From NCBI GenBank assembly GCA_964358895.1, contig CAYHPR010000002.1, positions 30,773 to 94,772 on the forward strand: a stretch of 64,000 bases of DNA, written 5' to 3'. Source of the DNA: Candidatus Micrarchaeota archaeon. GTDB lineage: Archaea; Micrarchaeota; Micrarchaeia; CABMEP01. This document shows, piece after piece, positions 879 to 40,512 of the stretch. A program made the translations under genes and the position numbers. The notes below the pieces were generated by a model. The model made no database searches. It had not been told where the DNA came from and saw nothing but the letters and a program-made list of their open reading frames with translations. Positions within the stretch are counted from its first letter, which is position 1, and each line of letters opens with the position of its first letter.

Positions 879-1600
879 TTATTTTCCAAATCGTCTATGT
901 CTTTGTCTAAACTCGGAGATTGCTTTTTCAAAATCCTCTTTAGTTACGTCAGGCCAGAGCTTAGGGCAGAAATAAAATTCACTGTACACCGATTGCCAGG
1001 GCAATAAGCCAGAAAGTCTTTGCTCACCTGCCGATCTAAATATCAAGTCTGGATCCGAAATGTCTGGAGCATAAAGGTATGAATTGAATGTTTTTTCATC
1101 TATCTGTTTTATCTTTCCTGATTTAACATCGACTGCCATACTGTTTGCAGCATCTATCAATTCCTGCCTCCCACCGTAACCTGCCAGAAAGACTACTGTA
1201 TATTTTTTGTTTTTTCCAGTTAATTTTTCTATCTTATTTATTCGTTCAACTATGTCTTTTGGAAAAAGAGAAAGCTTACCGACCCATCTAATACTCACTT
1301 CTTTTCTTATTTTTTCAAACTCTTTGCTTTTTTCTATCCTATCCAAAAGGTTCCTGAATAATTTGAACAGTGCTTCGATTTCTACTTTTGATCTGCTAGC
1401 ATTTTCTGTTGAAAAGATCCAGATGCTAAGTGTCTTGACACCTAAATCCTTACACCATTTAACAACGTCCTTAAACTTCTCAGTACCTGCGATATGTCCC
1501 TCTGGGATTGACTTTCCGTGTTCCTTGGCCCATCTCCGGTTTATGGTCTAAAAATTCCATCCGGGATTATGCAAACATGTAGTTCTTTTGATTTTCCGAT
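879..1600 (-). CDS. uppS: cis-prenyltransferase (undecaprenyl/polyprenyl diphosphate synthase, UppS family), reading frame interrupted by a 14-nt insert at 1541..1554
   Basis: The C-terminus RSAGEQRLSGLLPWQSVYSEFYF..LWPDV..RQRHRRFGK matches the UppS signature. Homology continues upstream (NRRWAKEHGKSIPEGHIAGTEKF..IWIFSTENASRS) past the TTG used by the ORF track. The far N-terminus KSKELHVCIIPDG lies in another frame. No ATG/GTG/TTG start is available; ATC at 1600 lies 5 nt after AGGTG. Confidence 0.7.
1541..1554 (-). other. Candidate 14-nt BHB/BHL-type intron inside the uppS coding sequence
   Basis: The RNA CCGG-AUGG-AAUUUUUAGA-CCAU-AAA-CCGG forms an outer helix, a 4-bp central helix, a 3-nt bulge and a loop. 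Excision restores CCG GAU GGA AAC CGG AGA UGG, which reads PDGNRRW. Confidence 0.45.
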
Positions 1601-1615
1601 TTAAACACCTTTATT

Positions 1616-1921
1616 TTAAGAACGTTCAGCTGCTAAAATTGCATTAAAATGTTTCTCAAGTAACGTTTCAGCATTTTTCCAATGCTTTTTTGATTCCTTA
1701 ATCTTTCCAGAATCTTCAAGTTCTTCGGCTATGTCATGTTCTCTCGTAGCCTTAAAAAAATAATCTATTGCTTTTCTAGCTTCGTTTACAGAGATATTGT
1801 GAAGCAGTCTATATTTTTCAATTAAATTAGAGTATAATCTCTTTTTATCCCTACGATGGTGGGCTTTCCACCATTCGATCTCATATCTTGCTAAATTTTT
1901 AGAGATAACCTTCGTTTTCAT
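1616..1921 (-). CDS. Hypothetical protein (charged, helical)
   Basis: 101-aa ORF with coding-like composition in a co-directional gene string; no family recognised. Confidence 0.5.
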   Translation of the reverse strand: MKTKVISKNLARYEIEWWKAHHRRDKKRLYSNLIEKYRLLHNISVNEARKAIDYFFKATREHDIAEELEDSGKIKESKKHWKNAETLLEKHFNAILAAERS

Positions 1922-2032: not shown

Positions 2033-2281
2033 ATGGGAAACATAGGATTTATTCCGACAAAAAAAGAAGCCAGGGCGATATTTACTAAAGCAAACGAACT
2101 CCATACTAGGCATATGCGAATTGTTGGAAAAGGGTTCAAAAGAGCTGGAAAATTGAATAGAACTGAACATAAAAAGATAGATTCGATAAGGTACGCCAGA
2201 CGAATGCTTTTTAGTGGACATCACGAAAAGCTTGGACTTCTTGGTCGTATTTTATATGCTAAAGAATTAGAGTCGTATTAG
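2033..2281 (+). CDS. Small basic hypothetical protein
   Basis: 82-aa K/R-rich ORF. The overlapping minus-strand ORF 1943..2224 has S/F-rich shadow-like composition, so the plus ORF is preferred. Confidence 0.3.
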   Translation: MGNIGFIPTKKEARAIFTKANELHTRHMRIVGKGFKRAGKLNRTEHKKIDSIRYARRMLFSGHHEKLGLLGRILYAKELESY

Positions 2282-2941
2282 AAAATAACCTATCAAAGCT
2301 GAAGAGATAGTGCAGATCATATTTGACGTTGACTTATTACCTATCCCCATTTCTTCAAAGATTCCTGCAATTGTATCGAATACACTTCCTAAGAAGCCAG
2401 CTATTGCAATATAAAAAATAAATGACGGATCGAAGTTATACAAAAAATAAGCAATCACTCCGATTATAAGTGCTCCGATAAAAGAAAGAAATGTTCCAAG
2501 TGCAGATATTGCTCCAGATGTACCTGCTCTGACACTTTTTAAATTTTTCAGAGAAATTGGCTTTCCTGAAAGCACGCCGAGTTCTGATCCAAATTTATCA
2601 GAAAGAGCTCCAGCAACTGAAGTTACATATGCGGCAATCCAAACTGGCGAATTCGTCAAATAAAATGCAGCACAACATAAAGTTGGGATTGAACCATTAG
2701 AAATGACATTATGCCACCCTCTCTCGTGCTCATAAACGCCTTTCTCTTTCTTTTCCTCATGTCTATACTTCGTTGCGATGACACTGATAAATAAAAATAA
2801 GAGAAGAAGTAGGATATTAGCTAACGCGTAACTTTTAGAAGTGAAAATGACGACTAAACCAATAATTAGGGAAGCAACGAAACCAGGAGTATCTAATAGA
2901 AGCGCTCTAACCAAATTATCACTTATCTGTTGTTTGTTCAC
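2267..2941 (-). CDS. DUF92/COG1836-family integral membrane protein (VTE6-like isoprenoid-phosphate kinase family)
   Basis: Multi-TM protein with GALSDKFGSELG and SGAISALGT motifs resembling the DUF92 DTxASExG / GxxSxxGT pattern. It lies next to uppS. Confidence 0.5.
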   Translation of the reverse strand: MNKQQISDNLVRALLLDTPGFVASLIIGLVVIFTSKSYALANILLLLLFLFISVIATKYRHEEKKEKGVYEHERGWHNVISNGSIPTLCCAAFYLTNSPVWIAAYVTSVAGALSDKFGSELGVLSGKPISLKNLKSVRAGTSGAISALGTFLSFIGALIIGVIAYFLYNFDPSFIFYIAIAGFLGSVFDTIAGIFEEMGIGNKSTSNMICTISSALIGYFLIRL

Positions 2942-3947
2942 CTATTCCTCTAACTGACAACTTACTGTCTTTTACATCGAATGAAATATTTGTAAACTTT
3001 GGTATAAGCCACATACAGGTTTTAGCATGTTGAGTAAGTTCTGGAACTGAAATTGATGACTCTCCATTTGCTAGCGCCATAAAAATAAGAAGCTGGTCTG
3101 ACATCCATCTATCGACAGTCGCTTGATTTGATATTTCCTTCTTCAGATCGAGCGCAACAGATCTACCAAGATCCTCTGATTTCAGACCAATTTTACCGAG
3201 ACTAGAAACACCAACTACTGTATTCTGAAATTCGGCCCAAAGAGTCAGTCCGGTGCCTGGAGATTGGGAGGACATAACAATTTTCTGTATCGAAGCGTCT
3301 GGAAGAACACTTTTTACTGCACTTATTTGTCGGTCGGCTACGTCTTCTTTAAGATTCGATAAAGCACAAACTCCCTTTATTCCATACAATAATCCTTTGT
3401 CATTAATCTCTATACCTGCCAGTTTTGAAGGATGTACTTCTATAGTCGTTGACCCTCCGCCGCGCGGATACCAGCCAAGCGAATCAACAAAAGAAACGAT
3501 CTTTGCTCCGAACCTTGCCGTAAGAGGTATGAACACGTTTCTGTAGAAATCAGTTGTTGGAGACCAGGCCACATGCGTTCCTCCAGTTAGTTTCAGCACG
3601 GATTTTTCTTTTCCGAATAGCAATACCGGAACCAATGACTGCGCTAAAAGAGTTACAGAGCCTGCCGTACCGATATCGAACGAATACTCGCCTTGTTTGA
3701 TCGCTTTTGGCGAAAAGCCCAGTTCCTGGGAACCTATTGATGCGCCCGTAACTACTGCATCGGTTATTTTAGCCATCGCCTGCACGCAAGTAAGGTGCTG
3801 CGGCTGAAGACCTGGTTTCGTACGGCCTGCTCGGATGTTCTTGATAACGAACGGTTTGCCTAGAATTGCAGATAAAGATAGAGCAACCCTTAAGATCTGG
3901 CCCCCTCCCTCTTCATAACTGCCGTCAATTTCAATAATATCTGTCAT
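2919..3947 (-). CDS. rtcA: RNA 3'-terminal phosphate cyclase
   Basis: N-terminus IEIDGSYEEGGGQILRVALSLSAILGKPFVIKNIRAGRTKPGLQPQHL is the RtcA signature; 342 aa is the typical length. Confidence 0.9.
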   Translation of the reverse strand: MTDIIEIDGSYEEGGGQILRVALSLSAILGKPFVIKNIRAGRTKPGLQPQHLTCVQAMAKITDAVVTGASIGSQELGFSPKAIKQGEYSFDIGTAGSVTLLAQSLVPVLLFGKEKSVLKLTGGTHVAWSPTTDFYRNVFIPLTARFGAKIVSFVDSLGWYPRGGGSTTIEVHPSKLAGIEINDKGLLYGIKGVCALSNLKEDVADRQISAVKSVLPDASIQKIVMSSQSPGTGLTLWAEFQNTVVGVSSLGKIGLKSEDLGRSVALDLKKEISNQATVDRWMSDQLLIFMALANGESSISVPELTQHAKTCMWLIPKFTNISFDVKDSKLSVRGIGEQTTDK

Positions 3948-5481: not shown

Positions 5482-6660
5482 ATGGTTGACATACTTAGAC
5501 TGGCTGAATATTTGATGATGTTTGCAGTTCTTTACTTCACGATAGTTTTACTGTTAATATATTTGCAGAATAGGAATAAGATGTGGTCGAATAAAAGGAA
5601 CAAGTATGAACCGACCGTATCGTTCATCATTCCAGCCTATAATGAACAAGAAGATATAGAAAAATCAGTAAGATCTGTACTTGCAGTAGATTATCCAACG
5701 GATAAACTCGAAATTGTTGTAGTTAATGATGGGTCGACTGACAACACCGCCAACTTAGTGAGATCAATTGCTGAAAAAGAGCTCCGAGTTAGATTATTAG
5801 ATAAAAAAAATGAAGGAAAAGCTCTAGCACTAAATTATGGAATAAAAAATGCTACCGGAGAGATTGTAATAACACTAGATGCTGACTCATATGTAACTAA
5901 AAACTGTGTGAAAATTTTAATGTCTCATTTTGATAAGGATGTTGCTGCAGTTACATCTGCGGTTAAGATTAAGGATAGAAAAGACATGACATTTCTTGAA
6001 TCATTGCAAAAAGTTGAATATCTATTCACAATATTTAACCGACGTCTATTTTCATTTATTAATTCAGTTTATGTAACTCCAGGTCCACTCAGTGCTTTTA
6101 GAAAAGAGGTATTTGAAGAGGTCGGTGGATTTGATCCAAATAATATCATGGAGGATCAAGAAATGGCTTTAAGAATTCAATCAGCAAATTATCGAATAAT
6201 AAGTTGCATGGACGCAGTAGTGTATACTGAGGCTCCGAAAGATTTTGATTCGTTAATGAAACAGAGAATACGGTGGCACAGAGGAGGGTTCAGAAACATT
6301 ATGAAATACTCATATATGGTTAATCCGAAATATGGAGATTTCGGTGCATTTGTTATGCCTTACTCTTTCGTATCAATCTTCCTGTTATTCTTGGTATTCT
6401 GGATTGTTGCCGTAGCTGTTTCGAAGGTGTCTGGATTATATTTCCTTGAACCGCTCCTCTCTGTTGAACCAATTCATGTTATTTCAGCGATTGTATTGAT
6501 CATAACTTTAATCTGGACGTTTATTGCATTGTCGCAGATAGAGGAAAAACCAAGCATAAAAAACATGATACTTTATATTATAACCTATTGTTATCTGATA
6601 ACATTTTTTATGGCTATAGCGATTGTAAAGGAATTGAAAGGGGATCCCGCTTCGTGGTAA
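5482..6660 (+). CDS. Family 2 glycosyltransferase, processive type (membrane-embedded, QxxRW)
   Basis: SFIIPAYNE, VVNDGSTD, TLDADS and QRIRWHRG motifs, plus N- and C-terminal TM helices. Confidence 0.85.
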   Translation: MVDILRLAEYLMMFAVLYFTIVLLLIYLQNRNKMWSNKRNKYEPTVSFIIPAYNEQEDIEKSVRSVLAVDYPTDKLEIVVVNDGSTDNTANLVRSIAEKELRVRLLDKKNEGKALALNYGIKNATGEIVITLDADSYVTKNCVKILMSHFDKDVAAVTSAVKIKDRKDMTFLESLQKVEYLFTIFNRRLFSFINSVYVTPGPLSAFRKEVFEEVGGFDPNNIMEDQEMALRIQSANYRIISCMDAVVYTEAPKDFDSLMKQRIRWHRGGFRNIMKYSYMVNPKYGDFGAFVMPYSFVSIFLLFLVFWIVAVAVSKVSGLYFLEPLLSVEPIHVISAIVLIITLIWTFIALSQIEEKPSIKNMILYIITYCYLITFFMAIAIVKELKGDPASW

Positions 6661-8879: not shown

Positions 8880-10200
8880 ACTCTTAAAATCAACACTTCC
8901 TGTACTTCCAGTGGTCTTGTGAACTACCGCCGATTAAAATCGGTGGCTTCCTCTTTCATTAAAGGAATTTGCTGACGAAACTTTTTATCAGTTTTGTCAG
9001 TATCGGTTTCTTCTCTGAGAGGCTTGACTTCGGACAGTTCCTGCCCTATTTTGCTCAACGCTCGATTGAGTATGTTTATGGCTGCATTGTGATCTCTGTC
9101 CAATGTAAGTCCACAATAACTGCATTTGTGAATCCTGTTCCACAACTTCTTTGGACTTTCTCCCACTTTTCCGCAGCCACTGCATGTCTGAGTTGTTCCT
9201 CTTGGCTCAACCCTTACCAACTGGATACCGGCACTCGCAGCCTTGTAATCCAGCATCTGTAAGAATCTTGACCAGGATGCATCGTTTATGTTTCTTGCAT
9301 TGTATGATATTTTGATTATTCCTGATCTCAAGAGCTTCCACAGCAATAATATCATGACTGTTAACATAATGTCTCGAAAGTTTATGGAGAAAATCATTTC
9401 TCTGATTGTAGATCTTTTCGAATTGTCTTGCAACTTTAATACGTTGTTTCTGCCTGTTGGCGGATCCTTTCTTCTTTCTAGATAATATTTGTTGTAATAC
9501 CTTAAACCCCTCAAATCCAACAGTCATGAATTTTGGATTATTTACGTGGTTGCCAACACTGTCAGAGGCAAAGTGCATAATCCCAAGATCTATGCCTACT
9601 GCTTTTGTTGCTTTTTCTGCGTGTAATCTTGAATTGTCTTTTTCACATTCAACAGAAATTGAAACATACCATTTGCCTGATGGATATTTTTTGACAGTAA
9701 CTTGTTTCATCTTTCCATCGACCTCCCTGTGCACCCTCATGGGAATTTCTCCAATCTTTGATAGGTACAGCTTCTGATATCTTTTCCCTGTTGAAATCAG
9801 ATGGAAGCCTGACTGATTGTATACGAACGTCTTAAACCATTCCTTCCCTTTGAACCTCAGTCTGCCTACTTTCTTTCCGTTTTTCTTCAGCTTGGTCAAT
9901 GCCCTTAAATTTGAAAAAAGCCTATAGCATTCATATTGAAGAACTTTAGAATAAACCTGACTCAAATCCGGATTCTCTGTTTTGATTTTTGGAATTGAAT
10001 TCTGCAGTGCTGAGCTATCTGGCTTCTCTTGCTTCCGAAGACCTTCAAGCATCTTATTGTAAACAAATCTACAGCTATCGAGGACTGATTGCATTCGTTG
10101 CTCCTGAACCTTTGATGGATAAAGACGGAATTTGAATGCTTTTAGCACGTATTAACGTCGAAAAATCTATTTATATAGCTTGACAGACCCTTCACAGCCG
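8880..10200 (-). mobile_element. Stand-alone tnpB insertion element (IS1341-like, no tnpA seen); ends not defined
   Basis: TnpB without an adjacent Y1 transposase. There is a hairpin CCGCCGATT-AA-AATCGGTGG at the tnpB 3' end (8927..8950) and a CCGGTGATCCGG palindrome upstream of the start (about 10200). Confidence 0.45.
8924..10148 (-). pseudogene. tnpB: TnpB (IS200/IS605-family OrfB, RNA-guided nuclease), split by a frameshift near 9300-9320
   Basis: ORF 9207..10148 carries the N-terminal MLKAFKFRLYP, RuvC-I GIDLGI and RuvC-II IIAVEAL. ORF 8924..9520 continues in another frame with NINDASWSRFLQMLDYKAASAGIQLVRVEPRGTTQTCSGCG...CSYCG...DRDHNAAINI (zinc ribbon plus RuvC-III). Confidence 0.8.
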
Positions 10201-17406: not shown

Positions 17407-17408
17407 AG

Positions 17409-17481
17409 TGGGGTCGCTGAGATTTGAACTCAGATCACCAGCTCCCAAAGCTGGTAGCATGCCAAGTTAGCCCACGACCCC
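17409..17481 (-). tRNA. tRNA-Pro (UGG), uninterrupted
   Basis: Reverse complement GGGGTCGTGGGCTAACTTGGCATGCTACCAGCTTTGGGAGCTGGTGATCTGAGTTCAAATCTCAGCGACCCCA folds as a cloverleaf, with anticodon loop TTTGGGA. Confidence 0.9.
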
Positions 17482-19641: not shown

Positions 19642-19765
19642 GCTTCGGTCGTCTAGTCCGGTTAAGGATCTTGGCCTTTCGTACAACTTTTAGTAAAAGT
19701 TTGATCAAACTTGACTAAATTTGTAAAGTTAGCCAATGACCCGGGTTCAAATCCCGGCCGGAGCA
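19642..19765 (+). tRNA. tRNA-Glu (UUC) with a 49-nt intron at 37/38 (19682..19730)
   Basis: GCTTCGGTCGTCTAGTCCGGTTAAGGATCTTGGCCTTTCG[49 nt]AGCCAATGACCCGGGTTCAAATCCCGGCCGGAGCA. Anticodon stem TTGGC/GCCAA, loop CTTTCGA. Confidence 0.85.
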
Positions 19766-22945: not shown

Positions 22946-25195
22946 ATGACTTATGAATTGATTATTGCGGAGAAGCCTTCTGTCGCACAGAAAATCGCAT
23001 ATGCGTTATCTAACGATGTGAAGAAAAGGTTCGGACGGAAGACAGTTTATTACGAAGTAACTAGGGACTCAAAACAGATCGTTATTGTTCCTGCAGTTGG
23101 ACACTTATTCTCGCTTAGACAAAAAGGCCAGGAAACGCCAGCGTTTGATATCGAGTGGGTTCCTACATATGAACTAAACAAGACTGCGTGGTATATGCGC
23201 GGGTATCTAGATACAATAAAGGAAATGGCGAAAAATGCCAGCGTGTTCATTAATGCAGCAGATTACGATATTGAAGGCAGCCTGATTGGTTATAATATAA
23301 TTAGGTTTGCTGGCGATCTCACGCGCGCCAAGAGGATGCGCTTTTCAACACTCACCCCAAATGAGCTTAGTCAATCGTACGAACATTTAGAACCTCTGGA
23401 TGTGCCTAATGCAATAGCCGGCGAAACACGGCATATGATCGATTGGTTGTACGGAATCAATCTCAGTAGAGCGATAATGAATGCGCTCCGGGCTGCTGGA
23501 AGGTCCCGAACGCTTTCAATCGGTCGCGTACAAGGTCCGATGCTGAAGTTCTTAGCAGAGCGAGAAGAACAAATTAAGAATTTTATTTCAACACCTTACT
23601 GGGAGTTGTTTGTATATGCAAAAGAAACAAAATTTCATCACACTACTAGCCGTTTTAATTCTGAACAAGAGGCAATCAAAGTTCAGAACAATACCAAACC
23701 CGAAGGAACAATTGACATAAAGAAAACTGCTCGTACAATTTATCCATTTCCAGCCTTCGATTTTACCAGTCTTCAGATTGAAGCCTACCGCCTTTTCGGT
23801 TTTTCTCCAATGCAAACACAAGAACTCGCTCAAACCCTTTACGAACACAGTTACATCAGTTATCCCAGAACTGCTTCTCAAAAGCTTCCTGTACAATTAA
23901 ATCTACCTTCTATTATTCAGAAAATTGCCCAGATAGAACGATTCAGTGAATTAGCTAAAAAGTTAATCGAAGGAAAAAGATTCAGGCCGCGTGAAGGTCA
24001 AAAGGAAGATGTGCATCCAGCACTTTATCCAACCGGAATTATTGGTAAGTTATCAACAGACGAGCAAAAACTCTACGATCTAATCACTCATAGGTTTCTT
24101 GCTGCCTTTGCTGAACCTGCGGAAGTTGAAGATCAGAAGATTAATTTAGACGCAAAAGAAAAATATGCTGCCGAAGCAATTCATATTGTAAAAGAGGGTT
24201 GGATTCAGTTCTATCCATACACACAGCTACGCGAGTCACAGATGGCCGTGTTTAAGCAAGGAGAACTCCTGAAAATAGATAAATTCGAGATTCTTCGAAA
24301 AGAAACAAAACCATCGCCACGTTTTACTCCAGCAACAATTCTTCAACTTATGGAAAAGGAAGACATTGGAACTAAAACAACCAGAGCAATAATTCTTGAA
24401 ACACTTTTCAAGCGCGGTTATTTTACTGGAAAACAAATCACTGTTACGCCACTTGGTCGTGCAGTTTACGAAACGTTCAGAGATTATTCACCAAAGATCG
24501 TTAATCCAGAGCTGACGAAACAGCTTGAATCCGAAATGGAAATGATACAGGAACAAAAAATTGACCAGCAGAAAGTTATATCCAATGCTAAAGGTATTCT
24601 CACTGAAATTCTTGATGATTTCACAAAGAACCAACAGAAAATAGGAACCAATCTGCTTGAAAAATTGGAAGAATCTGAAAGATTCGCACCTTGCAAGTGC
24701 GGCAAAGGTTTTCAGAGAATAATTGAAAGAAAAGGGAAATACCGTTTCTTAGGTTGCAGCGATTATCCAAATTGCAAGATCACTTACTCCCTTCCTCCAT
24801 TCGGTTTTGTTAATTCCGCAGGTTTATGCGAATTTTGCAAATCTCCTAGAATCTGGGCAGCCAAAGGCAAACAACGGTACACTTATTGTCTCAATCGTGA
24901 ATGTCCGGAAAAACTTGAAAAACTTAAACGGAAAGAGGAAGCGGCAGCTGAAAAGGAAGCTGCCAAAGCAGCAGAAAAGAAGCTAAAGGCACAACAAAAG
25001 CGAGAAGAAAAGAAACTTAAGACTCAGCAGATGAAGGAAGAAACAAAAAGTAAGGCAAAACAGAAGAAAGAAGAGAAGGCATCGGAGAAAATAAAACCAA
25101 AGGAAAAAACCGAAACGGCAGATACGAAATTAAAAGTGAAAAAAGAGAAGAAACAAAAACCGAAGAGCATCTCTCCGGAAGATTCGAATAATTAG
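22946..25195 (+). CDS. topA: DNA topoisomerase I (type IA) with C-terminal zinc ribbons and a K/E-rich tail
   Basis: Toprim LIIAEKPSVAQKIA and DYDIEGSLIG; active-site region SYISYPRT; CxxC...CxxC ribbons at aa about 575-650. Confidence 0.92.
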   Translation: MTYELIIAEKPSVAQKIAYALSNDVKKRFGRKTVYYEVTRDSKQIVIVPAVGHLFSLRQKGQETPAFDIEWVPTYELNKTAWYMRGYLDTIKEMAKNASVFINAADYDIEGSLIGYNIIRFAGDLTRAKRMRFSTLTPNELSQSYEHLEPLDVPNAIAGETRHMIDWLYGINLSRAIMNALRAAGRSRTLSIGRVQGPMLKFLAEREEQIKNFISTPYWELFVYAKETKFHHTTSRFNSEQEAIKVQNNTKPEGTIDIKKTARTIYPFPAFDFTSLQIEAYRLFGFSPMQTQELAQTLYEHSYISYPRTASQKLPVQLNLPSIIQKIAQIERFSELAKKLIEGKRFRPREGQKEDVHPALYPTGIIGKLSTDEQKLYDLITHRFLAAFAEPAEVEDQKINLDAKEKYAAEAIHIVKEGWIQFYPYTQLRESQMAVFKQGELLKIDKFEILRKETKPSPRFTPATILQLMEKEDIGTKTTRAIILETLFKRGYFTGKQITVTPLGRAVYETFRDYSPKIVNPELTKQLESEMEMIQEQKIDQQKVISNAKGILTEILDDFTKNQQKIGTNLLEKLEESERFAPCKCGKGFQRIIERKGKYRFLGCSDYPNCKITYSLPPFGFVNSAGLCEFCKSPRIWAAKGKQRYTYCLNRECPEKLEKLKRKEEAAAEKEAAKAAEKKLKAQQKREEKKLKTQQMKEETKSKAKQKKEEKASEKIKPKEKTETADTKLKVKKEKKQKPKSISPEDSNN

Positions 25196-26961
25196 CTATT
25201 TAATTTTCTTTCTTTAACTCTCTGCCTTGCCTCTGAGTCTGCTCTTGACCAGTAATAATTATTATAGTCTACAAATTTCATTGAACTTGCCCTAGTTTCT
25301 GACTGCTCTTTTAATTTCTGATGCATTTTCTGGCACATTAGTCTGTAGTTAGGATGCCCCTGTTTTCCAGTTCTTAGTTCAAGCATATGCATTGCTTCTC
25401 TGTCATTCATTCCCATATACCATCTTACATTGAATCCAAATGGCACAACATATTGTGCAATTTCATTACCCATTGCCGTTCTAATCTTTTCATAAAGATT
25501 TGATGCAGTTTCATAATTTTCTACAAGTTTATCTTCGAATCCGGCTTCATTTATTTCTTCAGGTATAGAAAAGCCTAATCTAGTCGTAAGTTTCTGTCTT
25601 TCTTGAGTCAGCATCCTATGTCTTTGCAGGTCCCTATAAATGCCAAAACTTTCAACCAAATCATAAAGTAAAGGATATCCGTATTCTAATGCTCTTCCAG
25701 GTTTGTCTCTTCTTGAGTTTCTATCTCCAATATATGTACAGTATATCTCCTTCCTTTTTTCTTCAGGTAGTTCACGCACGATATTAATTATTTGTTCCAT
25801 TGAGTGTTCAGTATACTTGTATAGCATAACTGCAATCTGTCTTATTTCAAACTCTTTTTCAAATCTTTTTATCAAGTCCTTTGGCAATTCTCGTTCTAAT
25901 AACCCACTAATATTCCCCGAAAATTTACCCTCAAAATATTTGTTTAAATCTTTTGCCAATGCTTCCGCAATAAATCTTATTCCATTGTCAAGCAGTGTTA
26001 CGTCTTCTGTCAATTTAACATTTTTTTTATCAAAAATAGAATTAACTAGACGCTGCATGGTTTTTCTTGTTTCCATAATATATCCATTCGGTTTAGCTCT
26101 TTCTACAAATCTAGGGATTACTTTATTTAGTTCATAATGTAATTCTTCACCCCTAATCTTAAATTCAGGCACGTCTGACGAATAAAGTTTAGTTAGTAAG
26201 TTCTGATACGCTCTTCCATTACAGAACAACGCAACATTTGATAAGGTGGCAGCGGGCAACGGTCCTCTTATTGTGTCGCAGGCTTTAGTTTTAATATCAA
26301 AATTATACGTTGTTAACCACGCGTTTCTATCGTTTTCATCAGTCAGCGCTGCAAGTTTAAGCTGCTCACCGGTTCCTTTTATATCATAAGTTGCTTCAGT
26401 AATGGGTTTAAGTTTTTTGAAGTAGTCGGTCATCGGTGCTATCAGATCGCAATATGTTTGGAATAATTTGTCCATTGTTTTTACGTATTCCTCTTTGTAT
26501 TCTGAGTTCATTATCGGATTCTTAGTTTTATCTTTGAGATAGCGGAAATTTCCAGCAGTATCTTTTTGGTTATAGAAAACGTACCGAGAAGATTGTTCGA
26601 TATATGCTACTCCGATTCTACAGTCTTCTATTTCCTTTATGGCTAGATTGGAGATATTTTCTAATCTAACAAGAGCCCCTTCCAATTCTCCAACTGAATC
26701 GTCACCGTAAGCAACAAGCACTTTTTCAATTAGTTTATCAAGCTTCTTTAAGTTGAATTGCCCATCTTTGGCGAATTCCTTTGTAACAATTGTCCTCCAT
26801 CCATATGCCGCACGACTAAATCTAGTTACAGTCGCTCCACCTATTCCTGGAGGCAAAAGAATAACAGAGGTATCCCCAAGTGCATTTGTTGTATACTTGG
26901 ATAAGAAGTTAATATCCTGTTCATTAAATTTTTCAAATTCACCTTCAAACTGATCAGTTAT
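25192..26961 (-). CDS. thyX: Large ThyX-family (flavin-dependent thymidylate synthase-like) protein; start codon unresolved
   Basis: YRDLQRHRM (RHR motif) and ELRTGKQGHPNYR. The frame is open and conserved-looking (FNEQDINFLSKYTTN...) upstream of the TTG used by the ORF track (26856), up to 26994, without ATG/GTG/TTG. Confidence 0.75.
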   Translation of the reverse strand: MTDQFEGEFEKFNEQDINFLSKYTTNALGDTSVILLPPGIGGATVTRFSRAAYGWRTIVTKEFAKDGQFNLKKLDKLIEKVLVAYGDDSVGELEGALVRLENISNLAIKEIEDCRIGVAYIEQSSRYVFYNQKDTAGNFRYLKDKTKNPIMNSEYKEEYVKTMDKLFQTYCDLIAPMTDYFKKLKPITEATYDIKGTGEQLKLAALTDENDRNAWLTTYNFDIKTKACDTIRGPLPAATLSNVALFCNGRAYQNLLTKLYSSDVPEFKIRGEELHYELNKVIPRFVERAKPNGYIMETRKTMQRLVNSIFDKKNVKLTEDVTLLDNGIRFIAEALAKDLNKYFEGKFSGNISGLLERELPKDLIKRFEKEFEIRQIAVMLYKYTEHSMEQIINIVRELPEEKRKEIYCTYIGDRNSRRDKPGRALEYGYPLLYDLVESFGIYRDLQRHRMLTQERQKLTTRLGFSIPEEINEAGFEDKLVENYETASNLYEKIRTAMGNEIAQYVVPFGFNVRWYMGMNDREAMHMLELRTGKQGHPNYRLMCQKMHQKLKEQSETRASSMKFVDYNNYYWSRADSEARQRVKERKLNS

Positions 26962-32897: not shown

Positions 32898-33442
32898 TTT
32901 TAGACCTATGATATTTGTTTTTTAATCTATTAATTCTTTCTATTCTGATGTTTTACTTGAATTTTATACAGCTTACGCTAGCAGTCTGCGAAATTAATTA
33001 AGAAAAAAGAATAGGATGAGTGAAGAACACGGAAACTTGAGAAATAGGAGATTTAGTATTGGACTGGCACACAAATCGCTTGCGCTCTTTGCTTACACCA
33101 CCAACCTATCAAACCCGTCTGCTACGGGCTCCCACAGCTGACTCGTTTTGGGAGATCCTTCGACCTTAGATGCTTTCAGGTCTTATGATCTGGCGCGTGG
33201 CTGCCCGGCGATGCTTGTTACAACCGGTATACTAGAGGCGCCTACCCTCTGTTCCTCTCGTACTCAGAGGATATTACCCTCAGTCAACAACACTCCCAGT
33301 AGATACTACCGTACTGTCTCGCGACGTACTGAACCCAGCTCGTGTACCTCTTTAACGGATGTACAACCCGACCCTTGGAAGCTCCTGCACTTCCAGGATG
33401 AGATAAGCCGACAGCGATGTACCAAGCCGCGGGGTCGATATG

Positions 33443-33490
33443 TACGCGATAGTCTAATTAGTGTTTGACGAAAACTAGGCTATCGCAGGG
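33443..33490 (-). other. 23S insertion 1 (48 nt, ORF-less) inside the H89-equivalent GAGT|CATATCGAC block
   Basis: Conserved CGATATG..TACTCTCGCCCGCG is split by a hairpin, GCGATAG..CTATCGC. The boundary is ambiguous by the repeated TAC. Confidence 0.6.
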
Positions 33491-33513
33491 TACTCTCGCC
33501 CGCGACGAGCCTG

Positions 33514-33860
33514 TTTTGGGTCATTCCAGCAAAAATAAAATTACGAATAATTAATTTACGAATTTGATTTGTTATGAATAGAATTATTGACGTAGCTAAA
33601 CGTCAAAATTTACGAGGTTTATTCGTAAATTATCCATAAAGAATCCAGAGTTTCGACTAAAGCATTTTTGAAAAAAATTCGAGAATCAAGAAAAATTCAA
33701 GATTAAATCTAAGAGTAACTCTAAGAGTATTTCTAAGATAAAATCTACGATTATATCTAGATATCTAAAATTATTTTCATATTGTTTGCGCTTTAGGTGT
33801 GGTAGTAAGAGGAGATCAAACTAAACCACACTCTGGACTCCAAAATTTTCACTGAAACGA
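33514..33860 (-). other. 23S insertion 2 (347 nt, ORF-less, AT-rich) splitting GGGG(G/A)UAA|CAGGCU
   Basis: Exon halves ..gagcctg (33507-33513) and ttacccccgggg (33861-) rejoin to the universal CCGGGGATAACAGGCTGAT-like block. There is no ORF of 60 aa or more; internal TTACGAAT and TCTAAGAGTA repeats are present. Confidence 0.7.
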
Positions 33861-34029
33861 TTACCCCCGGGGTAACTTGTCTGACAGATTGAGCCCTTAT
33901 CAAAAGGATTTCAATGTTCATTAAGCCCGACTTTCGTCTCTGCGAGACATACTGTTAGTCTCACAGTCAGTCCTGCATTTCTCTTTAACCGTTATCATCC
34001 GACGTTCAGCGATGATGAGCGTCATTCGC

Positions 34030-34129
34030 TGCTTTGCCTCATCATAAACTTTTAGGAAATCTTTCGAAAATAAATTTCGAAAAATTGTTTTATAAAAAGT
34101 TTCTGAGGTTGTACATAATATCATTCGCA
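34030..34129 (-). other. 23S insertion 3 (about 100-150 nt, ORF-less, long AT hairpin); boundaries uncertain
   Basis: CCTCA..AAACTTTT....AAAAGTTT..TGAGG hairpin flanked by the direct repeat TCATTCGC. The region is longer than the corresponding E. coli or haloarchaeal segment as recalled from memory. Confidence 0.5.
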
Positions 34130-34536
34130 CATCACTGATCACTTTCGTTTCTGACCGGATTAAGCAGAACATTGGGCGCCTTTATTTCCTTATCGAAGGC
34201 GTACTGCCCCAGCCAAACTATCCATCTGCAGCTGTTCCTTTTCAGGTTAGAAACACAAAAATTGTAAAGTGGTGTTACATTGGTGCATCCACCTCGGCCG
34301 CGACCAAGGTTTCTACGCTCCCACTTACGCTATGTAACAATTCCTATATTTCAACAACAGACTATAGTAAAGCTCCACGGGGTCTTCGTTTCCCACTAGG
34401 AGTCCTCCGCATATTCACGGAGCAGTGAGTTCACCAGGTCCCTCTCTGGGACAGTGGGGGATTCGTTATGCCCTTCATGCAAGTCGCCAATTAAGCGACG
34501 AGGTATTACGCTACCTTAAGAGGGTCAGATTGGTAC

Positions 34537-34567
34537 AAAATTTCTATTAGAAATTTTCTAGAAATCT
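34537..34567 (-). other. 23S insertion 4 (about 31 nt) in the GGTAAACGGCGG|CCGTAAC-equivalent block
   Basis: aaaatttctattagaaattttctagaaatct interrupts otherwise conserved sequence immediately 5' (RNA sense) of CTTAAGGTAGCG. Confidence 0.5.
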
Positions 34568-35617
34568 CGTGTTACCCCCGCTCTTCGCCAGCCCTTTGTG
34601 CCCTTGAACGAGCGTATCGGGTACTGGTAGTGAGCAGGCATCGCCTTCCATACTAGACATTGCTATTTTGCGTAAAGCTGTGTTTTTGGTAAACAGTCGA
34701 TCCCCCCAATTCACTGCGACCTGCGCATGCAACTTGCGTCACAAACGCAGGCAATCCTTGTACCGAAGGTACGGATCTATTTGGCCGAATTCCCTAGAGA
34801 GAGTTCCCCTGCCACGCCTTAGAATTTTCATCTTGCAGCACCTGTACTGGATCTTGGTACGATCACAACGAATCGGATAGAGAAATTTTTCACGGACCCA
34901 AAGCGTACGCCAAACCGCCTAAGGGCGGCTATTCGCATATTATACTGCTTCTCCTCATAATGAGACTCCACAGTACTATGTTGCTTAAACAGAGTCTCCC
35001 CTGCTCAGCTTAGCTTCAGATGTCAATCTCTACCTTGTGTTGCCACGTCTATCGTTGTGGCTGCCGAATATTAACGGCATTCCCTTTCATGTCCTAGTAA
35101 TTGGCTGGACATTTAGGATCGGCTAACTCTTGGCTGTCGAACGTTGCCAAGAAAACCGAGTGCTTTCGGCGTTCAGGATTCTAACCTGAATTTGCTGCTA
35201 CTGACGCCAGGATATTTATTGCAAAACGGTCCATAGGAGCTCACGCCCCTACTTCTGCCCGTTCCGCACACCTTCCTACCAGATTACGTATTTTGTACGT
35301 ACTCTTGGGTATCAGAAATCAGTTTAGTCCCGTACATTTTCGGAATGTGTACTTCTTCTAGTAAACTAGATCGAGCGGTCCGCTATTACGCGTTGCTTAG
35401 ACGATGGCTGCTTCTGAGCCTACGTCCCGCTTGTCTAGAAATGAACACTCCTTGTGACTTCACACTTAACTGATATTTAGGGTCTTTAACCCAAGTTTCG
35501 GTCGTTCCCGTCACGGCACACTAGCTTACCCAGTGCAACCCGACTCTCAACTTCTACAATGAACAAAGATTCGGAGTTTGACAAGAAAGCAGACTCTTTC
35601 GAATCTATTCTCCCTAA

Positions 35618-36547
35618 TCAGTGCTCTACCCCTTGTTCCATCTCCATTGAGGTCATCCTGATGGATGCTTCGGAAGGAACCCGCTTTCGCGGACTTAAAA
35701 GGCTATTAAGTTCGTTTTTCTTCCGGATAACCGGAATATGAGTATAAAATCTTTTTACATTTTCAAGACCATTAATATACAAATCATAAGTTGATCTGTT
35801 TTTGTATGGTCCTGCTGAATTTATTGGGAAAGTTGAAAGTGCTTTCCTAATAAATTCTAAAGATTCTTTGTTTGTCTGCGTGATTTTTAGCTTATATCTC
35901 CCTGTTTTTTCAACTGTTTTAACAGAAGGGCAATATCCTTCTGCGTCGAAAAAACCAGCAATATATTTACTCCACAACTTCTTATTTTCAGCTATCATTT
36001 TTGGTGTCGACCACGTTGTTTGTCTTGTCGGCATTTCAAAAACTTTTTCGAAAAAGATAACTAAAGGTTTAGATGAAAACCTTAGTCTGTAACTTTCTCT
36101 ATCTTTTTCTATAACTCCTTTAATTCGGAAGTTCATCTGAAAAATCTTGCTTAAATATTTCAACCAAAATTCAGCATATTTTCCGCTTTGAGTTATTACG
36201 ATATCGTTTTTTCTCCCAGTTTTTCTGAGATTTCCGTCCCTCAAAGCACCTACAAGATAAGCTACATCTTCGTTTATTTTAGGAATCTTTATTCCTTTAT
36301 TGCTAAGAGACCTAATGTCTTTGGCAATTGTTAGGATTTCACTTTTTTCCTTTTCGTTCGAAATTTCCAAAAGCAAATCTAACGGAATTGCAACCCCTGA
36401 AAGATAACTATATTTTGTAGATCTTTTCAATTTGCCGAGTTTTTCGAAGTGAGTTTTAACAATCTCTTCACAACCTGTTATGAAAAGATTCTCACCTTTG
36501 AAATATTCAACAAGAAGCTGTTTATCACGCATACAGTTTTTACTCAA
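35618..36547 (-). CDS. LAGLIDADG homing endonuclease (double-motif), intron-encoded in 23S
   Basis: Motifs VAYLVGALRDGNL and YIAGFFDAEGYC. The last 22 codons of the ORF-track model read into the downstream rRNA exon. The likely ATG start is at 36532. Confidence 0.85.
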   Translation of the reverse strand: MSKNCMRDKQLLVEYFKGENLFITGCEEIVKTHFEKLGKLKRSTKYSYLSGVAIPLDLLLEISNEKEKSEILTIAKDIRSLSNKGIKIPKINEDVAYLVGALRDGNLRKTGRKNDIVITQSGKYAEFWLKYLSKIFQMNFRIKGVIEKDRESYRLRFSSKPLVIFFEKVFEMPTRQTTWSTPKMIAENKKLWSKYIAGFFDAEGYCPSVKTVEKTGRYKLKITQTNKESLEFIRKALSTFPINSAGPYKNRSTYDLYINGLENVKRFYTHIPVIRKKNELNSLLSPRKRVPSEASIRMTSMEMEQGVEH

Positions 36548-36561
36548 TTAGCCCTTTAAAT
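35684..36561 (-). other. 23S insertion 5 (878 nt) with LAGLIDADG ORF, splitting GCGAUAG|CGGGUUCC (E. coli GAGAUAGCUGGUUC block)
   Basis: Flanking sequences rejoin to the conserved ..CAATCGAACATCGCGATAG+CGGGTTCCTTCCGAAGC. Confidence 0.7.
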
Positions 36562-37554
36562 CTATCGCGATGTTCGATTGGACTTTCACCCCTATTCCAA
36601 GGTCACCCAAGTGGATATACCAACACTGGTTGCGGCCCTCCACCAATCGTTAGATCGGCTTCAGCCTGCCCCGGAATAGATCACAACCGCTTCGGGTCAT
36701 ACAATAGTGATCAAACGCATTTTCATACGTCCCGCCTCGTTCAGCACTGCGCGGAATTGCTTTCGCTACGTCTTTCGACTCACCACTACCGTATACTCCC
36801 TGGCTCTTGATTCGAGAAGTACGATGCAACACTGGTCCATTTTCCTGGTCCACTGCCTTGCGACAGTTTGCTTCGGAAAACTTCGACCCTTTCGTGCCAC
36901 ACCAACCTGTAACCATTCAGTTTCAGGCTCTTTTCAAAGGTCTTTCGACCTACTTTTCAACGTTCGCTCACGCTACTAATTCGCTATCGGTCTTGGATAC
37001 TTGTTTAGGATTAGAGGTTGATCCCCCCAACTTCGTGCTCCATTCTCGAGGAGCACTACTCACATCGTTACCCTCCTTTACGTTTTGCTTACGGGACTAT
37101 CACCCTTTGTCGTAAGACTTTCCAGTCTACTTCAGCTCCTGTAAAGGATAGTTGTAACGCCCACATCCACTACATATTACTATGCAGAGTTCGGTTTGTC
37201 CTGTCCGGCTTTCGGTCGTCTTACTCACCGGATCCCAATTGGTTTTTCTTCCTTCGGTTACTGAGATATTTCAATTCACCGAGTTTTTGTCCATTCCTGG
37301 ACGCACAGATATCTTCGGTTCAACGTTCGCATGCAACTCCCCGAAGCTTTTCGCAGCTTGCCACGTCTGCTTGAAATCCAAGCCTGGCCATCCCCTGAAT
37401 GGCGTATTAACTTCTCACTGTTCTCGTGTCCTTCACTCAAACCTATAAATCAGCGTCACAGCACATTCTCATGTGCTCAGCAATCCTTTGTCCAATCATT
37501 CGGACAAAATCATACTTCAACGAAACTTCGACGCTATTAACGTCAAAGTTTCTA

Positions 37555-37769: not shown

Positions 37770-38281
37770 AGTATTAACACTTCAAGGTCCTTCAGTGGAC
37801 ATATATGCTCTGAATTTTTTAGAAAAAAATCTAACCAAAAACAAGTTTTGATCAAACTTTCAAGAAAAAATTGTTCAACGTTTGAATTAAGTATCAAACA
37901 ATTGACGTTTTTAACGTCAATATTTAGCAATTTGCATTGCTAATCAAATTAATTACGCACACGACTCTCACAAATTTTTATTTTCATAAAATATTGGAGG
38001 TGATCTATCCGCAGGTTCCCCTACGGATACCTTGTTACGACTTAGCCCCCCTCATAAAAATTTGGTTCGAGGCTACCAATTTCTCAATAGCGCCTCACCA
38101 GACTCTCACTTGGGTGACTTGACGGGCGGTGTGTGCAAAGAGCAGGGACCGATTCACCGTACGATTGTGACATACGATTACTAGGGATTCCAGCTTCATG
38201 AGGGCGAGTTTCAGCCCTCAATCCGAACTTAGACTAGGTTTCGGGGATTAGCTCCACCTTTCGGTGTGGCAACCCATTGTC

Positions 38282-38911
38282 CTAGCCATTGTAGGCCACG
38301 TTAGGCTCTCGCGAGGTAAATTTAGGATGATAAGTATAAATTTTACGAAAATAAGCATCAGTATTATTGAAACCATTTATTTGGAGTCCATACATTTTGC
38401 CTGAATTCCAAGTAGAGAATTTCAATCCTAGATCTTTCAATAGGAAAGCCAGTTCATCTCTTATTGTTTTATTTACTACATGCATTGCAATTCTTGGATA
38501 GATGTATGTTCTTCTTTCTTTTTTTACTACTTTTCGTGTGATGCAACCTTCTGCATCCATCCACCCTCCAATATACGATGCCTTAGTTTTACTTCCTGAA
38601 TTCATGATCCATTCTGGCGTTTTCATTTGAAAAGTTTTCGTCCTTCCTTCAGGAACACCCAGTTTAATCAAGAAATTGTAGAGTTTTTTCGACCAAATTC
38701 TTATTCTATAACAAATATTACCTAAAGCAGTTTTCATCACATAAATTTTTGCTTTTATGTTCAACGTTTCTTCAAATAGTTTTGTTACAGTTTGTAAAAA
38801 TTCGAAAGAAGGATCTACAATATTGATTTCATAGTTACCTTTTCCATCTTTTGAAAGGCTTCCGTCGCCCCCAATTAGACCTACCAAATAAGCCAAAGAT
38901 TTTCTTTTCAT
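38282..38911 (-). CDS. LAGLIDADG homing endonuclease (double-motif), intron-encoded in 16S
   Basis: Motifs LAYLVGLIGGDGSL and ASYIGGWMDAEGCI. The ATG (MKRKSLAYL) is at 38911. The frame is open over the entire intron, and the last 6 codons lie in the exon. Confidence 0.85.
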   Translation of the reverse strand: MKRKSLAYLVGLIGGDGSLSKDGKGNYEINIVDPSFEFLQTVTKLFEETLNIKAKIYVMKTALGNICYRIRIWSKKLYNFLIKLGVPEGRTKTFQMKTPEWIMNSGSKTKASYIGGWMDAEGCITRKVVKKERRTYIYPRIAMHVVNKTIRDELAFLLKDLGLKFSTWNSGKMYGLQINGFNNTDAYFRKIYTYHPKFTSREPNVAYNG

Positions 38912-38992
38912 TATCTTTGTCAAATTTTTGTAGTTTTTAAAGGTTATGAGACACCTAACAACCGGTGATCCTAAGGATATTTTACCTCGCAA
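38300..38992 (-). other. 16S insertion 1 (693 nt) with LAGLIDADG ORF, splitting GGGCTACAC|GTGGCCTACAATGG
   Basis: Intron termini are complementary (CTCGCGAGGTAAA / TTTACCTCGCAAG). The exons rejoin to the archaeal GGGCTACACGYGGGCTACAATGG block. Confidence 0.75.
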
Positions 38993-39015
38993 GTGTAGCC
39001 CGGGAGATTAGGGGC

Positions 39016-39145
39016 TTTAGCCGTCGATAGCAGTGTAAATATAACAACTGCCTGCCGGCTCCCAAAAATCTTTGGCTAACATGTTCTGCGACATATTTGT
39101 GCAAAGTGCTGTGTTTAATGTGGTGTTGTGATACCACTATCGACG
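39016..39145 (-). other. 16S insertion 2 (130 nt, ORF-less) splitting ..GGTCAGTATA|GCCCCTAATC.. (E. coli CATCATG|GCCCTTA block)
   Basis: Terminal inverted repeat GTCGATAG..CTATCGAC. The flanks rejoin to GGGGCATACTGACCTACCGTCGCC-like conserved sequence (plus-strand view). Confidence 0.65.
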
Positions 39146-39259
39146 TATACTGACCTACCGTCGCCCTCTCCTTCCTCTGTTTTAACAACAGCGGTTCCTT
39201 TAGAGTGCCGCTTCCCCGGAGGAAAACGTTGCAACTAAAGATGAGGGTCTCGCTCGTTT

Positions 39260-39848: not shown

Positions 39849-40208
39849 CCAGACAGCTCACGCCACGAGCTGACGATGGCCATGCACCACCTCTCGGCTC
39901 GTTAGGTAAGATCTTTAGTCTGACCTTCATCCTGCCGTCGCTCCCGGTAATATTCCCGGCGTTGAATCCAATTAAACCGCAGCCTCCACCCCTTGTGGTG
40001 CTCTCCCGCCAATTCTTTTAAGTTTTAAGCTTGCGCTCGTACTCCCCAGGTGGCAGACTTAACGCTTACGCTACGGCACTGCCAATCCTCGAAGGAAAGG
40101 CAACACCTAGGTCTGCATCATTTACTGCTAGGGCTACATGGGTATCTAATCCATTTCGTTCTCCTAGCCTTCGCACCTCACCGTCAGACATGTTTTAGCC
40201 AGACGCCT

Positions 40209-40467: not shown

Positions 40468-40512
40468 TCCAGTTTCATTACGATGTAAAACGTGTAATTT
40501 CGTAAGGAAATG
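40468..40512 (-). other. 16S insertion 5 (45 nt, ORF-less) inside the universal GTGCCAGC|AGCCGCGGTAA (515-533) block
   Basis: attaccgcggct[45 nt]gctggcac, with an internal TTACGA..TCGTAA hairpin. Confidence 0.75.

Follow-up and report, generated by a model that had tools for sequence, protein, structure and literature searches.

Background

The closest described counterparts of the element reported here, a 14-nt insert that divides the uppS gene of a Micrarchaeota archaeon within the codons of its catalytic motif, are the bulge-helix-bulge (BHB) introns of the archaeal gene cbf5. The uppS locus lies in a stretch of 64,000 nt (hereafter the window: forward-strand positions 30,773 to 94,772 of contig CAYHPR010000002.1, assembly GCA_964358895.1), for which a first-pass annotation had proposed that the insert is a BHB intron removed by the tRNA splicing machinery. 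Introns of cbf5 (Watanabe 2002; Yoshinari 2006; Yokobori 2009) occur with a patchy distribution in the crenarchaeal orders Desulfurococcales and Sulfolobales, are often mis-annotated, measure 16-44 bp, lie in phase 1 in the catalytic Asp codon, and mostly form a relaxed BHB that is cut between bulge residues 2 and 3 (PMC2738675). In a 2020 study cbf5 was still the only coding sequence interrupted by a BHB intron, to which an intron in the 5' untranslated region (UTR) of Haloferax volcanii HVO_1309 was added (PMC7714728). The view taken in the annotation, that BHB introns in mRNA are essentially restricted to cbf5, agrees with this literature once the Haloferax case is added (PMC7714728, PMC2738675), and the literature from 2002 to 2020 and later that we searched contains no report of an intron in uppS or in a Micrarchaeota mRNA, which is an absence from those sources rather than a proof.

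Several features of cbf5 introns recur in uppS. The candidate intron is likewise short, lies in phase 1 in a codon of the catalytic motif, mostly takes the form of a relaxed BHB and would be cut between bulge residues 2 and 3; its distribution is also patchy, implying gain and loss, in-frame variants exist that would still need removal, and gene callers mis-call the interrupted genes. The two cases differ in gene and host, cbf5 being a pseudouridine synthase gene of Thermoproteota whereas uppS encodes a cis-prenyltransferase in the DPANN phylum Micrarchaeota. The class of endonuclease probably differs as well, with an (alpha-beta)2 enzyme in the former and, by analogy with Candidatus Micrarchaeum acidiphilum ARMAN-2, a candidate epsilon2 enzyme in the latter. 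Moreover, splicing of cbf5 has been demonstrated with cDNA and in vitro, whereas the uppS intron is predicted from sequence.

The epsilon2 endonuclease of ARMAN-2 cleaves both BHB and bulge-helix-loop (BHL) substrates (PMC12397907). With the non-canonical and BHL tRNA introns of that organism (Fujishima 2011; PMC3488258; PMC12397907) the uppS motif shares the phylum, the BHL geometry, one strict 3-nt bulge and a 4-bp helix, but the ARMAN-2 substrates are pre-tRNAs, whereas the uppS motif is built from protein-coding codons without a tRNA body. HVO_1309 offers a further parallel, as an mRNA substrate of the archaeal splicing endonuclease; however, its intron lies in a UTR, leaves the reading frame uninterrupted and belongs to a euryarchaeal host with an alpha'2 enzyme.

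In phage T4 gene 60, a short untranslated gap in the coding sequence is bypassed from a take-off site marked by a stop codon and a hairpin. This process is ribosomal and needs matched take-off and landing codons, whereas uppS has no landing codon and its gap lengths vary. In the unconventional cytoplasmic splicing of HAC1/XBP1, Ire1 excises a small frame-changing mRNA intron, and the 2',3'-cyclic phosphate ends are joined by tRNA ligase or RtcB. The likeness to uppS lies in a small, frame-changing mRNA intron removed by a protein endonuclease; the differences lie in the nuclease (Ire1), in the use of twin stem-loops rather than a BHB, and in the eukaryotic, stress-regulated setting. RtcB and XBP-1 are both mentioned in PMC8718801.

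The split uppS gene

The gene, whose best protein matches are from Micrarchaeota (DPANN), is read from the minus strand in two parts, as follows.

1555..1600, minus strand: uppS exon 1, 46 nt, ATC (1600..1598) through GGA+A, encoding (I/M)GKSKELHVCIIPDG and the first base of the Asn codon
1541..1554, minus strand: predicted 14-nt BHB-type (bulge-helix-loop) intron, 5'-UUUUUAGACCAUAA-3', in phase 1 of Asn16, DG|NRRW
879..1540, minus strand: uppS exon 2, 662 nt, AC CGG AGA TGG ... GGA AAA TAA, encoding (N)RRWAKEHG...RRFGK*

Two reading frames, offset by 14 nt, each hold part of the protein. The exon-1 frame reads ATC GGA AAA TCA AAA GAA CTA CAT GTT TGC ATA ATC CCG GAT GGA ATT TTT AGA CCA TAA, translates as IGKSKELHVCIIPDG IFRP* and is closed by the TAA at 1543..1541; the second frame, F*TINRRWAKEHG..., runs to the stop at 881..879 (both on the minus strand). 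Removal of 1541..1554 (TTTTTAGACCATAA) joins GGA-A to AC-CGG and gives ...IIPDGNRRWAKEHG..., within a frame of 708 nt (235 codons and a stop, numbered from the codon after an in-frame TAA). The predicted spliced junction, without 1541..1554, is GGAUGGAA|ACCGGAGAUGG; owing to an AA/AA repeat the ends of the excised segment can shift by up to 2 nt, the mature sequence being identical whichever are chosen.

The spliced product matches Pfam PF01255 over its full length (1-219/219, E 1.9e-71, 240.5 bits) and the uppS model TIGR00055 with 233 bits against a cut-off of 109.6, and aligns with solved cis-prenyltransferases of the PDB directly through the junction. A tblastn search with the spliced protein places the exon-1 match at 1600..1547, and N-termini resembling exon 1 (MENGLHIAIIPDG and similar) are found in intron-less relatives. 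Only once 1541..1554 is removed are a full-length UppS and an intact DGNRRWA obtained; from the unspliced DNA, gene callers report no more than a 155-aa tail (P0011). The 14-nt division of the gene inside DGNRRWA is therefore confirmed as first annotated, and excision by the cut rule invoked there does restore DGNRRW and full-length UppS matches. The accompanying remark that 235 aa is a normal length for UppS holds in that the 235 codons match the family models from end to end, and is qualified by their being numbered from an ATC in a frame without ATG, GTG or TTG.

Predicted RNA structure

The helices, bulge and loop of the predicted motif are built as follows (minimum-energy fold, in part also supported by comparison among relatives).

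1561..1567, minus strand: outer exon-exon helix, 5' strand AUC + CCGG (codons Ile-Pro-(Asp)), minimum-energy fold
1557..1560, minus strand: central 4-bp helix, exon strand AUGG (from GAU GGA), pairing with intron CCAU
1547..1556, minus strand: 10-nt loop AAUUUUUAGA, with the predicted 5' splice site AA|U between 1555 and 1554
1543..1546, minus strand: central helix, intron strand CCAU (fold and comparison)
1540..1542, minus strand: 3-nt bulge AAA, with the predicted 3' splice site AA|A between 1541 and 1540
1532..1539, minus strand: outer helix, 3' strand CCGG, bulged A, GAU (codons (Asn)-Arg-Arg-Trp; fold and comparison)

RNAfold returns this arrangement (CCGG, AUGG, 10-nt loop, CCAU, AAA bulge, CCGG, with additional AUC:GAU pairing across a bulged A) as both the minimum-energy and the centroid fold in three sub-windows, matching the helix-bulge-helix-loop originally proposed. 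As BHB we accepted two 3-nt bulges separated by a 4-bp helix, or the relaxed forms hBH, HBh' and BHL, provided that these keep the 4-bp helix and one strict bulge or more. On this definition the window motif is a relaxed BHL, possessing a 4-bp AUGG:CCAU helix, a strict AAA bulge and a 5' site in the loop, and a cut placed 2 nt beyond the central helix on either side takes out exactly 1541..1554. Codon bias adds to the case for the motif: in a sequence of 37.6% GC the helix is built with CGG, which makes up 5% of Arg codons in the window and is the rarest of them, CCG (21% of Pro codons) and ATC (22% of Ile codons).

Inserts at the same site in relatives

Loci of uppS were collected from a protein search, GTDB representative genomes and JGI metagenomes (exon-2 peptides only). 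In the scan of GTDB genomes 3 of 80 genes bear an intron, a proportion that is not readable as a frequency and is biased towards intron-less genes because one of the two search patterns, IIPDGNRRW, presupposes an uninterrupted motif. Among relatives in the JGI metagenomes with at least 47% identity and the N-terminus on the contig, 4 of 13 carry inserts. In all, inserts occur in nine distinct sequences, the window and eight other Micrarchaeota, and range over eight lengths between 14 and 35 nt; each of them interrupts the same Asn codon in phase 1, directly behind its first A.

Window: 14 nt
L094: 15 nt
L002 (same as L087): 17 nt
L038: 20 nt
L001: 22 nt
L099: 28 nt
L100: 28 nt
L021: 33 nt
L023: 35 nt

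The insert breaks the frame in seven of the nine; the two in-frame inserts (15 nt in L094, 33 nt in L021) hold stop codons, and translation in the exon-1 frame would meet a stop within 2-7 codons in every insert. Cutting after bulge nucleotide 2 yields DGNRRW and a full-length UppS in all nine sequences. The 3' bulge is always 3 nt long and in the same register (AAA in seven, UAA in two), and is flanked throughout by the central helix and the exon-exon helix. The context of the 5' splice site varies: it falls within a hairpin loop in both the window and L002, within a bulge of 4 nt in L038 and within a 4x1 internal loop in L023, and L099 and L100 have a strict 3-nt bulge there. The motifs of L023 and L038 are near-canonical BHBs, and for L099 and L100 a canonical hBHBh' can be drawn, with an AAA bulge, 4 bp, a UAA bulge and an 8-bp inner hairpin; for these two RNAfold favours a 5-bp central helix, and the frame comes out correctly only in the canonical 4-bp register. 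Alignment of the relatives' loci thus reveals same-site inserts in eight distinct relatives with a shared bulge, shared helices and compensatory changes, and not the unrelated disruptions that the first-pass annotation had named as a sign of plain decay: all nine genes are interrupted at the identical position, with their exons otherwise intact.

In L001 the gene caller produced a chimeric 235-aa 'UppS' (P0041, 2176..2883; MILSNLYILPSLLTEVFEYLTV-NRRW...), which begins at a GTG inside the Shine-Dalgarno sequence and reads exon 1 and the intron in the wrong frame. This chimera shows how such introns stay hidden in protein databases.

Covariation, selection and phylogeny

The alignment used for covariation was anchored on coding features and not on structure, and its nine sequences are a small and related sample. 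Standard pairs fill 94% of its pair cells (96% of those in the outer helix), against 19-50% in registers that displace the 3' partners by 1-3 columns, and the observed covariation score was reached by none of 500 shuffles. Two pairs covary without a single unpaired cell, namely Pro codon position 3 with Arg codon position 1 (CCG/CGG in six sequences, CCU/AGG in three) and Asp codon position 3 with a base of the intron (GAC/CCGU-type in six, GAU/CCAU in three). As both exon changes are synonymous, this coupling is not explicable by the protein. Furthermore, the 4-bp outer helix CCNG:CNGG is complete in 8 of 9 intron-bearing genes compared with 11 of 77 intron-less ones (Fisher p = 1.1e-5). Judged from these sequences, the predicted BHB structure is conserved, with covariation, among the homologues.

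The codons for II-P-D-G and N-R-R-W are mutually complementary, UCAUC-CCNG with CNGG-A-GAUGG (1532..1567 of the window, minus strand), and in 49 of 77 intron-less genes at least four of the five positions of the extension pair, the 4-bp core being complete in 11. A hairpin that pre-exists in the exons may serve as a proto-splice site, and would persist in the spliced mRNA.

Spliced proteins are full-length and retain the catalytic DGNRRW in all nine sequences. The ratio of non-synonymous to synonymous substitution (dN/dS) was computable for two pairs only, the remaining pairs being saturated at synonymous sites; between L099 and L100, both interrupted, dN/dS is 0.10 at a dS of 0.59. Their 28-nt introns differ at one position, where an A-U pair becomes G.U within a helix, and with 1 of 28 nt changed against a dS of 0.59 the intron is far more constrained than synonymous sites.

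In a neighbour-joining tree all intron-bearing uppS genes fall in one Micrarchaeota clade, with intron-less sisters among them: (window, (L002, L005 without intron)); (L094, L095 without); (L098 without, (L099, L100)). Such a pattern implies either repeated precise loss or repeated gain, and the common 3' ends of the short introns, GAC[C/G][A/G]UAA, hint at shared descent. The insert is reproduced in L132, an independent ENA assembly that agrees with the window over 3755 nt at 99.95% identity and with 0 gaps, the 14-mer included, which contradicts the assembly artefact that had been named as a possible refutation. The sample name points to groundwater of Hainich well H52 (0.2 um fraction) as the source of the population. 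An identical 17-mer is likewise present in L002 (ENA) and L087 (JGI).

The likely start codon of uppS

Six of the nine intron-bearing sequences have an ATG, GTG or TTG start in the exon-1 frame. The absence of a canonical start from exon 1 of the window had been overlooked in the first-pass annotation; the signal found there is the following.

1606..1610, minus strand: Shine-Dalgarno-like AGGTG, 5 nt upstream of ATC 1600..1598, with an in-frame TAA at 1601..1603

An AGGTGAT...ATC with equal spacing is present in L001 (2166..2186), and the intron-less L003 (about 1730..1760) and L004 (about 1780..1810) show GGTG-N5-ATT, without an in-frame ATG, GTG or TTG. Gene callers shorten the uppS of these two intron-less relatives too (P0047, P0104), on account of the non-canonical start. 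The 16S rRNA ends in ...GAUCACCUCCA, and GGTG-N5-ATG is the favoured spacing before long ORFs (open reading frames) of the window, in a small sample. In the window's subclade, uppS is thus likely to be initiated at AUC or AUU, five nucleotides after the Shine-Dalgarno sequence. This oddity belongs to the subclade and not to the intron, because other intron-bearing lineages start with ATG, GTG or TTG. An ACG start in L002 and L094 (GGTG-N5-ACG) was dropped, its conservation being explained by the C-terminus of an overlapping upstream gene.

Proposed splicing pathway and alternative explanations

We consider it highly likely that the 14 nt at 1541..1554 are a BHB-type intron, of relaxed BHL form, in the uppS pre-mRNA of this Micrarchaeota archaeon. 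The interpretation first offered for the insert is in this respect supported by the same-site inserts, by covariation, by purifying selection and by the independent assembly. What is directly established comprises the sequence, the fold, the restoration of the frame, the conservation of site and structure with covariation in nine sequences, and purifying selection; from these we infer cleavage by the tRNA-splicing endonuclease EndA, ligation and the AUC start. In the pathway that we propose, exon-1 codons Ile-Pro-(Asp), AUC CCG G, would pair with exon-2 codons (Asn)-Arg-Arg-Trp, C CGG A GAU GG, to form the outer helix, and the Asp-Gly codons (AUGG) would pair with the 3' end of the intron (CCAU) to form the 4-bp central helix. 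The 3' splice site would thereby come to lie in the AAA bulge, with its 5' counterpart 2 nt beyond the central helix. EndA would then cut after the second nucleotide on each side, at 1555|1554 and 1541|1540, and a ligase of RtcB type would join GGA-A to AC-CGG, giving GAU GGA AAC CGG AGA UGG (DGNRRW) in an mRNA for a full-length cis-prenyltransferase. Unspliced mRNA would yield only a 19-residue peptide, ending at a UAA that spans the last nucleotide of the central helix and the 3' bulge.

A number of observations weigh against this reading. The energy of the fold is by itself not significant (z -1.2 to -1.4, with 25-26 of 200 shuffles as stable), for which reason energy was not used as evidence and the case rests on register and comparative data. 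The 5' splice site of the window lies in a 10-nt hairpin loop rather than in a 3-nt bulge, and the central helix of L021 has only 2 of its 4 pairs. Conserved amino acids account for some of the outer helix, which is complete in 14% of intron-less genes. The exon-1 frames of the window, L001 and L002 have no ATG, GTG or TTG, the protein search gave no full-length match above 72% identity to the window's spliced product, and the supporting assemblies are of low coverage (contig names 'cov_3'). A Pfam scan of about 50 ORFs from the 64-kb window found neither EndA nor RtcB. Finally, 8 predicted spliced proteins were sought as exact matches in a catalogue of 15 billion proteins and none was present, a result that is uninformative on splicing.

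One alternative is a pseudogene, in which uppS would have been inactivated by a 14-nt insertion and be decaying, the hairpin merely reflecting the self-complementarity of the IIPDG/NRRW codons. Biosynthetic genes are lost in DPANN archaea, which are reduced symbionts, and the call of only a 155-aa fragment (P0011), the exon-1 frame without a canonical start and an outer helix partly pre-formed in 11 of 77 intron-less genes would all be in keeping with decay. However, independent decay would scatter lesions, whereas nine distinct sequences are interrupted at an identical nucleotide position and nowhere else. Their exons are full-length and keep DGNRRW in every case, dN/dS is 0.10 between two interrupted genes, the helix strand of the insert covaries with the exon, and the intron is better conserved (1/28) than synonymous sites (dS 0.59); we therefore regard a pseudogene as very unlikely. 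Next to no probability attaches to an assembly or sequencing artefact, that is, a mis-join or indel error of 14 nt: low-coverage metagenome assembly (cov_3 in the contig names) might invite such errors, but the sequence is identical, with 0 gaps over 3755 nt, in an independent assembly, the same 17-mer recurs in ENA and JGI assemblies, and eight other distinct sequences carry homologous inserts.

Translational recoding, by a programmed frameshift or by bypassing across the insert with the hairpin as stimulatory structure, is suggested by a stop codon right after a stable hairpin near the 5' end, and the cbf5 introns were themselves formerly mistaken for frameshifts (PMC2738675). Yet insert lengths fall in all three classes modulo 3, so that no single shift works; the in-frame inserts of L094 and L021 contain stops, a -1 shift in the window would place IFRPI inside the catalytic motif, no locus offers a GGN landing codon before AAC for the Gly-tRNA, and no slippery site is common to the loci. 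On sequence grounds the features of programmed frameshifting or bypassing are absent, and recoding has only a very slim chance of being correct. We give a similarly low probability to a BHB-like element that is cleaved without productive ligation, or spliced conditionally, and acts mainly as an on/off or decay switch while the polyprenyl carrier comes from another enzyme. In Haloferax, cleavage by EndA of a BHB in the HVO_1309 5' UTR affects expression (PMC7714728), and a weak non-AUG start with an intron 46 nt from it would point to low, controllable expression. Against a switch, both exons are under purifying selection in the spliced frame, frame and motif are precisely restored in nine of nine sequences, and a search of the 64-kb window with the spliced protein found no second uppS. 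Regulatory cleavage may act as a layer added to splicing, but not as its replacement. A self-splicing intron of group I or II was rejected, the inserts measuring 14-35 nt against a catalytic core of hundreds of nucleotides, with no Rfam intron family matched in the window at gathering thresholds.

Other insertions in the window

The window, with a GC content of 37.6%, contains archaeal 16S and 23S rRNA genes and four tRNA genes.

17408..17481: tRNA-Pro, uninterrupted
19642..19765, plus strand: tRNA-Glu-UUC with intron
58627..58750, plus strand: tRNA-Met-CAU with intron
63442..63575, plus strand: tRNA-Leu-UAA with intron
33033..37422, minus strand: 23S gene, 4390 nt against a 2987-position model, about 1.4 kb of insertions
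37995..40989, minus strand: 16S gene, 2995 nt against a 1478-position model, about 1.5 kb of insertions
35621..36547 and 38285..38992: LAGLIDADG ORFs within the rRNA insertions

The tRNA introns, in three of the four genes, are 49-59 nt long and lie at or near the canonical position in the anticodon loop. At gathering thresholds neither group I nor any other Rfam intron family matched in the window, and the rRNA insertions are for that reason presumably of BHB type. The first-pass annotation had spoken of many BHB-type insertions in tRNA and rRNA genes; the interruption of three of four tRNAs and of both rRNAs stands, the type of the rRNA insertions being presumed. Together, the tRNA and rRNA introns imply that the host possesses splicing machinery.

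A generic BHB scan of the whole window (4+4 bp in canonical register, introns of 10-150 nt, joined ORF of at least 40+40 codons) gave 486 hits on both strands, approximately the level expected by chance, and no convincing second split coding sequence, in a design blind to introns near the 5' end, that of uppS included. The ten candidates with the longest joined frames were rejected as antisense, low-complexity frames or simply adjacent genes. A free-standing ORF of LAGLIDADG type with weak Pfam matches lies outside the rRNA genes (54688..55404, plus strand), and in L004 a LAGLIDADG gene (2527..3156) directly adjoins the intron-less uppS.

Neighbourhood of uppS

The genes upstream of uppS are as follows.

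1616..1921, minus strand: 101-aa ORF without family match, between DUF92 and uppS
2267..2941, minus strand: DUF92 membrane protein, upstream of uppS
2919..3947, minus strand: RNA 3'-phosphate cyclase RtcA, two genes upstream of uppS

The order RtcA-DUF92-UppS-T2SSE-T2SSF is kept in the intron-less L005 and L006 and in L132, in favour of orthology of the split gene. RtcA, which acts in the chemistry of 2',3'-cyclic-phosphate RNA ends, is found at 2919..3947 in the window, 1164..2186 in L005 and 103..1125 in L006; being conserved in intron-bearing and intron-less genomes alike, its adjacency is probably coincidental. The 101-aa ORF is present in the window and in L132 and missing from the corresponding 175-nt gap of L005 and L006; it shares its frame with uppS exon 1, two TAA codons lying between them.

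Genes for envelope glycosylation are abundant in the window, including an STT3/AglB-like oligosaccharyltransferase, GT2, GT4 and GT9 glycosyltransferases, a polysaccharide flippase and a PAP2 phosphatase, at the following positions.

5482..6657, plus strand: envelope-glycosylation gene
44174..46520, plus strand: envelope-glycosylation gene
46563..49205, minus strand: envelope-glycosylation gene
49370..50881, plus strand: envelope-glycosylation gene
58762..59841, plus strand: envelope-glycosylation gene

Glycosylation pathways depend on the polyprenyl carrier that UppS produces, and their presence speaks for a functional uppS being required by the organism.

Elsewhere in the window, an OrfB (TnpB-like) gene of the IS200/IS605 family is encoded at 9210..10148 (minus strand), with HTH_OrfB_IS605 and OrfB_IS605 domains. 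A ThyX-like ORF of at least 554 aa lies at 25195..26856 (minus strand); the Thy1/thyX match covers only about its last 150 residues and scores below the TIGR02170 cut-off, its N-terminal 400 residues are without a family match, and inspection of the translation by eye revealed no intein signature.

Implications

The comparative data indicate that uppS is very probably, by the literature that we searched, the second archaeal coding sequence with an endonuclease-type intron, in a new gene and a new phylum. A much broader reading, which we consider unlikely, is that uppS is the tip of a wider set of unannotated, endonuclease-spliced mRNA introns in DPANN archaea, long kept in one Micrarchaeota clade where codons of the catalytic motif form the splice helix; lying 46 nt from a weak non-AUG start, the intron would gate the synthesis of the glycosylation lipid carrier on EndA and RtcB, as an archaeal analogue of HAC1/XBP1.

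Current pipelines mis-call these genes, as a fragment of 155 aa or 186 aa or as a chimeric 235-aa protein, and metabolic reconstructions of these symbionts may consequently list the polyprenyl-carrier pathway as absent in error. The close parallel with cbf5 (phase 1, a codon of the catalytic motif, exon codons in the helix) would make the sites at which such introns insert and persist testable, and an insert of only 14 nt would provide biochemistry with a natural BHL substrate. UppS is an essential lipid-carrier enzyme, and the insert falls in the middle of its catalytic motif. If the intron is removed as proposed, mRNA splicing by the tRNA machinery would not be confined to one gene and would reach the DPANN archaea, an extension that fits the broad specificity of the one characterised Micrarchaeota endonuclease, that of ARMAN-2.

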